Position numbers and translations under genes: made by a program. Below, piece after piece: positions 12,054 to 44,017 of a DNA stretch of 64,000 bases (its first letter is position 1; each line of letters starts with the position of its first letter). Below the pieces are notes generated by a model. That model had not been told where the DNA came from. It did no database searches and saw nothing but the letters and a program-made list of their open reading frames with translations. This stretch comes from Candidatus Gastranaerophilales bacterium (GTDB lineage: Bacteria; Cyanobacteriota; Vampirovibrionia; Gastranaerophilales; JAILCC01): NCBI GenBank assembly GCA_028696075.1, contig JAQVHS010000005.1, positions 6,656 to 70,655 on the forward strand, in the 5' to 3' direction.

Positions 12054-12183
12054 AGTAAAAATAATTACCCCAAGAAAAACATCTGCAGAAAAAAGCTTTT
12101 GTACTATAATAGTGTTTAACAATCGTTGAAAATTTAATACCTGTTTTGATGTCGGTGTGGCACTCTGCCGAACAAAACGATTG

Positions 12184-12320
12184 CGGATTTTTGGCAGGGC
12201 GACGGCTTGCGAAGCAAGACTAGTCCCGTAAGCGCAACTAGCCGAATTGAGCGAAAACTTTTTCATTAGAAAAAAGCTGTAGCGAAATAGAAGGCTATGC
12301 GTACCCAAAAATTCAAGACG
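12184..12320 (-). mobile_element. 137-nt non-coding element with terminal inverted repeats (MITE-like or structured RNA), copy A
   Basis: Absent from the otherwise identical second repeat unit. Inserted in the loop of the CAAAACGAT/ATCGTTTTG hairpin. Ends are CGGATTTTTGG / CCAAAAATTC. Homologous to 43783-43922 in the opposite orientation. Confidence 0.55.
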
Positions 12321-12491
12321 AGTATCGTTTTGTGAGAGGGGTAGACGCGCCGAAAAGCTTTTGTACTATAATAGTGTTTAACAATCGTTGAAAATTTAAT
12401 ACCTGTTTTGATGTCGGTGTGGCACTCTGCCGAACAAAACGATTGAGTATCGTTTTGTGAGAGGGGTAGACGCGCCGAAAAGCTTTTGTAC

Positions 12492-12497: not shown

Positions 12498-12537
12498 AGT
12501 GTTTAACAATCGTTGAAAATTTAATACCTGTTTTGAT

Positions 12538-12618
12538 GTCGGTGTGGCGGAATGGTAGACGCGCACGTTTGAGGGGCGTGTGGAGAAATCTGTGGGGGTT
12601 CAAGTCCCCCCACCGACA
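12538..12618 (+). tRNA. tRNA-Leu (anticodon GAG), class II with long variable arm
   Basis: Manual cloverleaf: acceptor GTCGGTG/CACCGAC, D region GGCGGAATGGTAGACGCGC, anticodon stem CACGT/GCGTG with loop TTGAGGG, T arm GGGGG-TTCAAGT-CCCCC, discriminator A. No encoded CCA. Confidence 0.9.
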
Positions 12619-12863
12619 TTTTTAAAATTTGATAAATTAAATTAATCGGACTTAGAACCCCGGTTGTGTCTTTCGACACAACGGTGGTTGCCGATACTCG
12701 GCATCCTAAGGCGTAATGCTCGGTGTCCATCACCTCGCAAACGCCTCAAGACAACTCCCCCCACCGACATTTTTAAAATTTGATAAATTAAATTAATCGG
12801 ACTTAGAACCCCGGTTGTGTCTTTCGACACAACGGTGGTTGCCGATACTCGGCATCCTAAGGC
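12605..12863 (+). repeat. two tandem 108-nt copies of tRNA-Leu 3' end plus a structured downstream module
   Basis: Exact copies at 12605-12712 and 12756-12863 (period 151). Each holds a roughly 65-nt module (12648-12712, 12799-12863) with closing stem CTTAG/CTAAG and hairpins GTTGTGTC-TTTC-GACACAAC and TGCCGA-TAC-TCGGCA. Confidence 0.9.
12718..12769 (+). pseudogene. possible internally deleted tRNA-Leu remnant
   Basis: GCTCGGTGTCC resembles the tRNA 5' end. TCAAG..TCCCCCCACCGACA matches the T-arm/acceptor 3' end. The anticodon region is missing. Confidence 0.3.
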
Positions 12864-43529: not shown

Positions 43530-44017
43530 GCCGCCAAGACAGTATTCCCTACGCTTCGCTCCGGTCAGCCTGGTGTAGATTCGCCGTGTCACAACAGTTA
43601 AACACCATGTTCTAAAATCTTGCAACAATCCGACCCGCGTCAGCGGCTGTCTTGGATTATGCACAACTCATAATGCTTAGTTTCATTTCGACATTTTGCT
43701 ATCGCAAAAGTCTTCATTGCACTGCATTATTCGAACAGACGGCATTCCCTACGCTTCGCTCCGGTCAGCCTACCGCAAATCCGCTGTCTTGGATTTTTGG
43801 GCGTGCATAGCCTGCCATTTCACTACAACATTTTTCTGACAAAAAAGTTTCCGTTCAATTCGGCTATTGCTCTTACGGGTTGGGTTCGGCTTTGCCTCAC
43901 ACGGCACCCTTCCAAAAATCCGCTGTCTTGGATTATGCGGGTCGTCGGAAAACTCATCGCTTCCCTCCGACTTACGGCGTTCCTTCACTATGTTCAGTCA
44001 GCCTACCGCAAATCCGC
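43530..44017. repeat. cluster of degenerate GC-rich repeats
   Basis: ATTCCCTACGCTTCGCTCCGGTCAGCCT x2 (43544, 43744) plus a degenerate third copy (43979). CAGCCTACCGCAAATCCGC x2. CCGCTGTCTTGGATT x3 and its inverted copy CCAAGACAG at 43533. Confidence 0.75.
43783..43922 (+). mobile_element. 140-nt inverted-repeat element, copy B (homolog of 12184-12320)
   Basis: Ends GGATTTTTGG / CCAAAAATCC. Shared core CATAGCC..TTTTTCT..AAAAAG..TCAATTCGGCTA..CTTACGGG. Flanked by a 19-nt direct repeat AAATCCGCTGTCTTGGATT. Confidence 0.55.

Follow-up and report, generated by a model that had tools for sequence, protein, structure and literature searches.

A 137-nt insert as a probable member of a family of folded, seamlessly inserting non-coding elements of Gastranaerophilales and their phages

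The 64,000-nucleotide (nt) stretch of Candidatus Gastranaerophilales DNA analysed here (contig JAQVHS010000005.1; G000:C2:6656-70655), referred to as the window, carries a 137-nt insert at positions 12184–12320 of the plus strand. The insert is probably one copy of a family of non-coding, folded, seamlessly inserting elements of Gastranaerophilales and their phages. Its genome, G000, is a draft of 1.84 Mb with 36% GC and a completeness of 99.6%. Members of the family are non-coding and 80–200 nt long, and they occur only in Gastranaerophilales (gut Melainabacteria) and in tailed phages of this order; the family is undescribed so far, and a literature search found no description of repeats in Melainabacteria. 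An earlier note on the window had proposed a non-autonomous mobile element or a mobile structured RNA; taken as a mobile element or mobile structured nucleic acid, the proposal is supported by the many copies and the several pairs of empty and filled sites described below.

Insertion and fold of the element

The insert, copy 1, occupies the 5-nt loop of a 41-nt hairpin, AAAACGAT-TGAGT-ATCGTTTT (module H41), in the first of two tandem units. As the earlier note had stated, the two units differ only by a 137-nt insertion in the hairpin loop of unit 1: unit 1 (12091–12353) minus the insert is identical to unit 2 (12354–12478) at 125/125 positions, and comparison of the units also bears out the claim that there is no target-site duplication. 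The boundary of copy 1 is ambiguous by one base, with a G on either side (CGGATT...AAGACG or GCGGATT...AAGAC). The locus comprises the following features.

12091..12478, plus strand: two tandem 'decoy' units upstream of a real tRNA gene, unit 1 bearing copy 1
12162..12183, plus strand: 5′ half of H41, ACTCTGCCGAACAAAACGATTG, separated by copy 1 and intact in unit 2
12184..12320, plus strand: copy 1, subtype A, 137 nt; removal restores unit 2 exactly; cmsearch 152 bits
12321..12339, plus strand: 3′ half of H41, AGTATCGTTTTGTGAGAGG, separated by copy 1, from comparison with unit 2
12424..12464, plus strand: empty paralogous site, the intact H41 of unit 2; insertion point TTG^AG, between 12445 and 12446
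12537..12619, plus strand: tRNA-Leu(GAG), from ARAGORN; Rfam tRNA 52.8 bits

Another genome, G076, contains near-identical 87-nt copies within the loop of a different palindromic repeat, which has the terminal repeats CGCCCCATTTTGTC/GACAAAATGGGGCG. Of this host repeat, 26 copies are empty and at least 13 are filled. The filled locus L144 equals the empty locus L158 plus 87 nt at GAACTTG^TTTCAG, and at least three subfamilies of the host repeat are represented among the filled copies, each with empty members as well. Both states are likewise found in the rpsM-rpsK spacer of genus g5, which is ~20 nt long (empty) in at least eight species, holds a 195-nt family member beginning right after the TAG stop in six species, and contains unrelated inserts in further species. 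These comparisons show that the copies are inserted DNA, joined seamlessly and without target duplication, which was found at neither of the two sites that are resolved exactly, TTG^AG in the window and CTTG^TTT in G076.

The strand that starts (A)GCGGATTT and finishes AATCCAAGAC(AG) folds as a three-way junction in every member. This fold is certain, and it may act either as RNA or as single-stranded DNA. The P1 helix pairs the ends (GGAUUUUnGG with CCnAAUAAUCC, often with one bulged U; GGATTTTTGG/CCAAAAATTC in copy 1), with an outer half that is constant in sequence and an inner half that covaries (UUGG/CCAA, GCGG/CCGC, UCGG/CCGA, GGC/GCC and ACAG/CUGU). P2 has the form G(G/U)GC...GC(C/A)C around GUGAGC-GAA-GCGAAC, with a GNA or GNRA loop and at times a 60-nt expansion (GGGCGACGGCTTGC-GAA-GCAAGACTAGTCCC in copy 1). 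Its tandem G·A pairs are swapped for Watson–Crick pairs in some copies, and the hairpin is exchangeable as a module, as between subtypes A and B. P3 is long and rod-like; it contains symmetric purine loops (GAA/GAA), ends in a loop that is GNRA-like or variable, and is closed in copy 1 by GCAACTAGCC/GGCTATGC. Conservation extends to the unpaired junction nucleotides. The apical GCGAAGC and GCGAAAGC motifs form very stable hairpins in DNA and RNA alike.

The stems proposed in the earlier note are strongly supported by covariation. An alignment of 54 matches from many genera, fitted to the covariance model, has standard pairs in 94.8% of pair cells, compared with 29–48% in controls in which the partners were slid by 1–3 columns, and changes on both sides in 36/38 pairs. 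The covariation score is 0.55, versus at most 0.09 in the slid controls, and the observed values were attained in 0/500 shuffles. Because this alignment was fitted to the model, the analysis was repeated with MAFFT and RNAalifold alone on 20 sequences, which recovered P1, P2 and P3 independently of the model, with 19/26 pairs compensatory. The RNA fold energy of the CGGATTT strand, on which the purine-rich loops are present, is lower than that of the complement (−38.5 versus −33.1 for copy 1, and −40.2 versus −31.8 kcal/mol).

A covariance model (R1) built from the seven full copies of G000 yielded, together with BLAST, 27 matches (seven full and ~20 related), which are spread over 14 loci of the genome. 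Subtype A is represented by four 137-nt copies, the others being 87–91% identical to copy 1. Subtype B comprises three copies with mutual identities of 97–98%, its main difference from A being a wholesale swap of P2. Short variants of ~98 nt and other variants have the same ends.

The second copy described in the earlier note, at 43783–43922, is real; its start had been placed too far left by 3 nt. Its identity to copy 1 is 77%, with P1 and P3 alike and P2 replaced by GGGTGCCGTGTGAGGC-AAA-GCCGAACCCAACCC, and it is 97–98% identical to the B copies at G000:C2:79746 and 97810. The shared features listed for the pair are all present, namely the ends GGATTTTTGG/CCAAAAATCC, the ATAGCC/GGCTAT stem, the inner T/A hairpin and the conserved TCAATTCGGCTA..CTTACGGG, and the divergent yet self-complementary third is found in both copies. 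Copy 2 is the middle member of a head-to-tail trio on the minus strand, which had been missed along with the many further family members.

43645..43785, minus strand: third member of the trio, with a different body; cmsearch 78 bits (G000:C2:50300-50440)
43786..43922, minus strand: copy 2, subtype B, 137 nt; cmsearch 158 bits
43921..44018, minus strand: first member of the trio, a 98-nt short form; cmsearch 37 bits (G000:C2:50576-50673)

A minus-strand gene lies upstream of the trio, and the first member directly follows the T-run of its terminator (...CTCTTTTTTTG^CGGATTTGCGG). At G000:C2:97810, a paralogous array has the same CAG^ junction without the third member, a difference of one whole member.

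Target sites, orientation and distribution

The family strongly favours loops and sites near stop codons or tRNA genes in heavily transcribed DNA, and also the sense orientation. The three bases before CGGATT are very often TAG, and also TTG, GAG, CAG or AAG. A TTG junction is typically the end of a terminator T-run (nine cases), and a CAG or AAG junction is often the end of a preceding copy; insertion behind the ...CAG end of another copy explains the head-to-tail arrays of unlike members. For 12 of 43 matches, the start coincides with the TAG stop of a co-oriented open reading frame (ORF) upstream, and among the stop-abutting copies examined, 9 of 14 follow the genes of S8, L6 (twice), S13, L7/L12, L10, L2, GroEL or RpoA. 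The spc operon of G000, outside the window, has the layout rpsH-[2 copies]-rplF-[at least 5 short copies]-rplR (G000:C16:36619-37964), with each array beginning at a TAG stop; in this region (G000:C16:36225-38462), tandem 99-nt members make up ~200 nt between rpsH and rplF and ~600 nt between rplF and rplR, where there is an assembly gap.

Six of the 14 loci in G000 lie at most 300 nt from one of its 36 tRNA genes, five of them co-oriented with it; tRNA-Leu(GAG) is located 217 nt downstream of copy 1 in the same orientation. Copies next to tRNA genes in other genomes include, in family f9, two positions shared with family f1, one before tRNA-Leu(CAA) and one after tRNA-His. The family is not specific to tRNA genes. 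Between tandem genes, 16 copies are in sense and 5 in antisense orientation. Of the 14 G000 loci, 7 have a positive and 7 a negative GC skew on the strand of the element. The sense bias together with this even skew suggests that orientation follows local transcription and not replication, within the limits of a small sample from a draft genome.

The model matches 87/151 sampled Gastranaerophilales genomes, covering 23/44 genera and 3/10 families with 1 to >20 matches each, and 0/100 genomes from other families of the same phylum. The 19-mer of the 5′ end, GCGGATTTTCGGTAGGGYG, is found in >120 contigs, nearly all labelled Gastranaerophilales, Melainabacteria or 'Vampirovibrio'; the few contigs with other labels are probably mis-binned. 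Near-identical short copies occur in bursts in four genomes (G076, G038, G053 and G068). A search for strain polymorphism in same-species contigs found only two short ones, both of which end at repeats.

Contigs of phages in IMG/VR were searched with a degenerate 5′-end pattern and then with the model, giving 13 true copies on 12 contigs. The genes around the copies form genuine modules for head and tail, with major head protein, sheath, portal and terminase, and 11/12 loci are sense-oriented. Some abut TAG stops, for example right behind the major head gene in L296 and L316. At L315:1747-1846, the element is in frame and read through within a phage portal gene, to which it adds ~33 residues, the usual internal TAG being changed to AAG.

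Among the families of Rfam 15, only tRNAs reached the gathering score in a search of the window. The best match to both element regions was Flavo-1, at 16–20 bits (gathering score 42), and no family matched the element in 20 loci of other genomes; across the Rfam searches, only tRNAs, an L10 leader and sub-threshold noise were recovered.

Mode of spread and alternative explanations

Because the elements code for nothing, they would have to be mobilised in trans. The sense bias with transcription, the loops and transcribed sites used as targets, and the scarless insertion point to a single-stranded intermediate or target, which may be exposed by transcription, as the non-template DNA strand or as RNA. 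Once inserted, an element would be co-transcribed as a stable folded spacer.

Profile searches of G000 gave no matches to Y1_Tnp, TnpB, IS110 or RVT_1, given a completeness of 99.6%. In the Y1 search (PF01797; 0 matches in G000) the control was positive in 6/14 genomes; the Y2_Tnp profile had no matches, but its control was positive in no genome, so that this search carries no information. RVT_1 was not matched in G003 or G038 either. The tyrosine recombinases of G000 are two only, both Xer-sized. Y1 is present in 29/87 genomes with the element and 23/64 without it, and reverse transcriptase (RT) in 43/87 and 24/64, respectively, so that neither co-occurs with the element across the order. The four burst genomes differ in this respect: both genes are present in G068, RT alone in G076 and G053, and Y1 alone in G038. 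Clustering of the ORFs at 56 loci revealed no conserved neighbouring gene, and a search of G000 for a longer autonomous element with the same ends found only loose chance pairs.

An HNH nuclease family adjoining copy 1 is present in 132/151 genomes (83/87 with the element and 49/64 without). It was rejected as a tied partner: it is near-universal in the order, and three of the four HNH-negative genomes of family f3 have the element nevertheless, so there is no tight link.

The profile searches of G000 and the Y1 and RT proportions weigh against the interpretation of the insert as one copy of a mobile, folded family, as do several properties of the copies themselves. The A-type copies of G000 differ from each other by 9–13%, so copy 1 is without a near-identical donor in this genome. 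Some filled G076 copies have hybrid arms, which suggests that the element spread in part from one host-repeat copy to another by gene conversion. G·U pairs are rare (1–2.5% of paired cells), which fits DNA better than RNA, and their ratio to A·C pairs (48:15, 15:13 and 10:4) shows a clear excess in one of three alignments only. The sense bias and the position behind highly expressed genes could also come from selection after random insertion, not from targeting.

Of the explanations that compete with a family of mobile, folded elements, the one that survives best is that these are mainly functional cis-acting RNAs, folded spacers that stabilise, process or uncouple highly expressed polycistronic mRNAs and tRNA precursors, and which multiply through duplication and recombination, with mobility being secondary. 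The fold and the internal-loop sequences are kept across three families with compensatory changes, the positions next to tRNA-His and tRNA-Leu(CAA) are shared by families f1 and f9, sense copies inside ribosomal-protein operons start exactly at stop codons, and the purine-rich loops and better folding are found on the sense strand only. However, presence and absence differ among close species at one site, 64/151 genomes searched have no match, identical copies occur in bursts inside other repeats, phage genomes carry copies, one of them within a portal gene, and G·U pairs are few. We regard this explanation as unlikely, although a functional RNA module and a mobile, inserting element are not mutually exclusive.

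The earlier note had pointed to kinship with IS200/IS605 or PATE. The elements would then be IS200/IS605-derived PATE-like or REP/REPIN-like repeats, moved as single-stranded DNA at the replication fork by a Y1 HUH transposase (TnpA/RAYT) that has been lost or is supplied by phages. Seamless insertion beside a short motif without duplication, single-stranded loops as targets and the presence of the element on phage contigs are consistent with this origin, and use of the element's own ...CAG end as a target would explain the arrays. RAYT-sized Y1_Tnp proteins (~180 aa; ~170–200 aa) are found in 52/151 Gastranaerophilales genomes, including the burst genomes G038 and G068. The kinship did not hold up on further search, however: tnpA/tnpB-like genes, sought elsewhere in G000 with the Y1_Tnp and TnpB profiles, were not found, Y1 is missing from G076 and G053 despite their bursts, its presence does not follow that of the element in the proportions given above, and no replication-strand bias was seen (7/14 loci relative to GC skew; small sample, draft genome). 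In addition, the ends of the element pair with each other, whereas those of IS200/IS605 have separate subterminal hairpins, and the arrays are head-to-tail and not inverted REP doublets. This origin therefore appears rather improbable.

About as improbable in our estimate is a bolder version of the mobile-family interpretation, in which the family is a hitherto unseen class of mobile element, independent of every known type of transposase. A folded single strand would be inserted scar-free and in sense at transcription-exposed loops and stop-proximal sites. The catalyst would be the fold of the element itself, acting like a ribozyme, or else an enzyme of host or phage that is specific to the clade and so far not associated with mobility. 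The Gastranaerophilales-only HNH family adjoining copy 1 is a candidate for such an enzyme.

A mobile structured RNA, in which a small RNA resembling an intron or ribozyme enters loops and ends of abundant RNAs and becomes permanent in DNA through reverse transcription and recombination, would account for sense-only, seamless insertion in hairpin loops, behind stops and at the terminator ends of the most abundant transcripts, and for the conserved unpaired junction nucleotides; of the burst genomes, G076, G053 and G068 carry RT genes. It is very unlikely, given that no RVT_1 was found in G000, G003 or G038, that the RT proportions are as given above with and without the element, that no Rfam ribozyme or intron matched, that no self-cleavage motif was recognised and that G·U pairs are rare. 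That the element is a mere passenger, carried along in other repeats and in duplications linked to tRNA genes and dispersed only through unequal crossing-over and gene conversion, is suggested by the hybrid arms in G076, by tandem units of element plus tRNA leader (C11:185598 and C14:65767/66009) and by two paralogous tRNA-Leu loci whose right junctions with H41 are identical, but can hardly be credited, since the many unrelated contexts (at least four kinds of host hairpin, the stops of differing genes, terminators and phages) each need a primary insertion.

Among known systems, REP/REPIN-RAYT (Bertels and Rainey 2011, PMC3116915) resembles the family in being short, non-coding, palindromic, intergenic, clustered and clade-persistent, without target duplication, and REP/REPINs are thought to act as folded single strands. 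The element differs from REP/REPIN-RAYT (PMC3116915) in its three-way junction, where a REPIN is two inverted REP units as one hairpin, in its head-to-tail arrays, in the lack of a RAYT/Y1 match in G000 and of order-wide co-occurrence, and in its presence in phages and behind the stop codons of ribosomal-protein genes. With PATE, derived from IS200/IS605, it has in common the seamless insertion 3′ of a short motif, the single-stranded targets and a lack of the DDE-type signature of inverted repeats plus duplication. It differs in that the defining Y1 TnpA was not found, in that its ends pair together and in that no lagging-strand orientation bias was seen at 14 loci, a small sample. Membership in PATE or REPIN-RAYT was rejected on the Y1 enzyme; the short-motif, duplication-free mode of insertion fits.

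The SDRs of heterocystous cyanobacteria, which are in the same phylum, are reportedly ~21–27 nt long and are said to nest in hairpins and other repeats without duplication. The likeness to the present family extends to the lack of a known transposase; SDRs are not known to have a complex fold, unlike the 80–200-nt elements with their conserved three-way junction and sense bias. ERIC/IRU, Neisseria Correia (NEMIS) and pneumococcal RUP/BOX elements, which are co-transcribed and MITE-like, have terminal inverted repeats and a TA (or similar) target duplication. They are alike in size (~100–150 nt), in their paired ends, in their transcribed intergenic sites and in that orientation matters for the mRNA. 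The present element is without the duplication, and its conservation reflects long-term compensatory change across families where theirs reflects recent copying. The in-frame, read-through copy in the portal gene of L315 recalls Rickettsia palindromic elements, but is a single case in an otherwise intergenic family.

Group IIC introns insert behind terminator hairpins and in attC hairpins, and the element is similarly inserted in sense directly after terminator stem-loops and into hairpins. It is far too small, however, and has no intron domains; a group II (class C) intron was ruled out, as there was no Rfam intron match and no RVT_1 (RT) in G000. A classical DDE miniature inverted-repeat transposable element was rejected, since the inverted-repeat ends of 10–11 bp are not accompanied by a duplication at the two exactly resolved sites. 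An integron attC site was rejected because the ends are CGGATTT ... AATCCAAGAC and not RYYYAAC ... GTTRRRY, and only the two Xer-sized recombinases were found, with no search aimed at IntI.

REP, ERIC, Correia and SDR repeats have been known for decades, and to our knowledge the mode of movement is unsolved for most of them. The family described here is clean material for this question of mobilisation, with exact empty and filled sites, recent bursts, a covarying fold and a narrow host range that includes phages. Its targets are striking: hairpin loops, the TAG stops of ribosomal-protein, rpoA, groEL and phage major-head genes, and the neighbourhoods of tRNA genes. Targeting coupled to transcription, if confirmed, would give bacteria a counterpart to the way in which eukaryotic retroelements target tRNA genes and highly expressed genes. 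The covariance model lets annotators recognise the inserts in Melainabacteria metagenome-assembled genomes, where they break assemblies and create spurious ORFs. Inserts of up to 600 nt inside the spc and alpha ribosomal-protein operons raise the question of their effect on operon expression.

Host repeats and tRNA-linked units

Each decoy unit of the window consists of a TATAAT box, a leader, bases 1–11 of tRNA-Leu, H41 and GGTAGACGCGC. The right junction of copy 1 with H41 is found again at G000:C2:79883, before tRNA-Leu(CAG). H41 (ACTCTGCCGAACAAAACGATTGAGTATCGTTTTGTGAGAGG) is itself dispersed, and always stands at the D-loop position of truncated 5′ tRNA copies (Leu, Met and others), which are located upstream of an intact tRNA gene. 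It occurs at window 12091–12478, G000:C11:15300-15440, C14:65721-66003 and loci L083–L100, in genomes G000 and G002–G004. Downstream in the window, the 3′ end of tRNA-Leu and ~94 nt following it form a tandem duplication with a period of 151 (12605–12863).

The host repeat of G076 (L132–L163) is abundant; its terminal inverted repeats are 14 bp long, and it encloses a hairpin, GCTGAG-TTTAT-CTCAG. Similar host hairpins are present in other genomes (GTCATTGCGAG... and CCCTCGCCC...GGGAGAG).

Tandem units composed of a tRNA leader, the first 10–13 tRNA bases and a full family member are found at G000:C11:185484-185800 and C14:65680-66264, where they precede tRNA-Leu(CAA) and tRNA-Met; H41 is included in those of C14. 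In C11, the element is bracketed by a 50-nt direct repeat (CCAAGACAG plus leader plus tRNA bases 1–13). The same contig has a gene-free island (G000:C11:209599-210433) between two inward-facing CGGATTTGCGG ends, with a full member beginning only at the left end. Contig C6 of G000 (8332 nt) has a GC content of 59.8%, compared with 36% elsewhere in the assembly, and is probably foreign or mis-binned.

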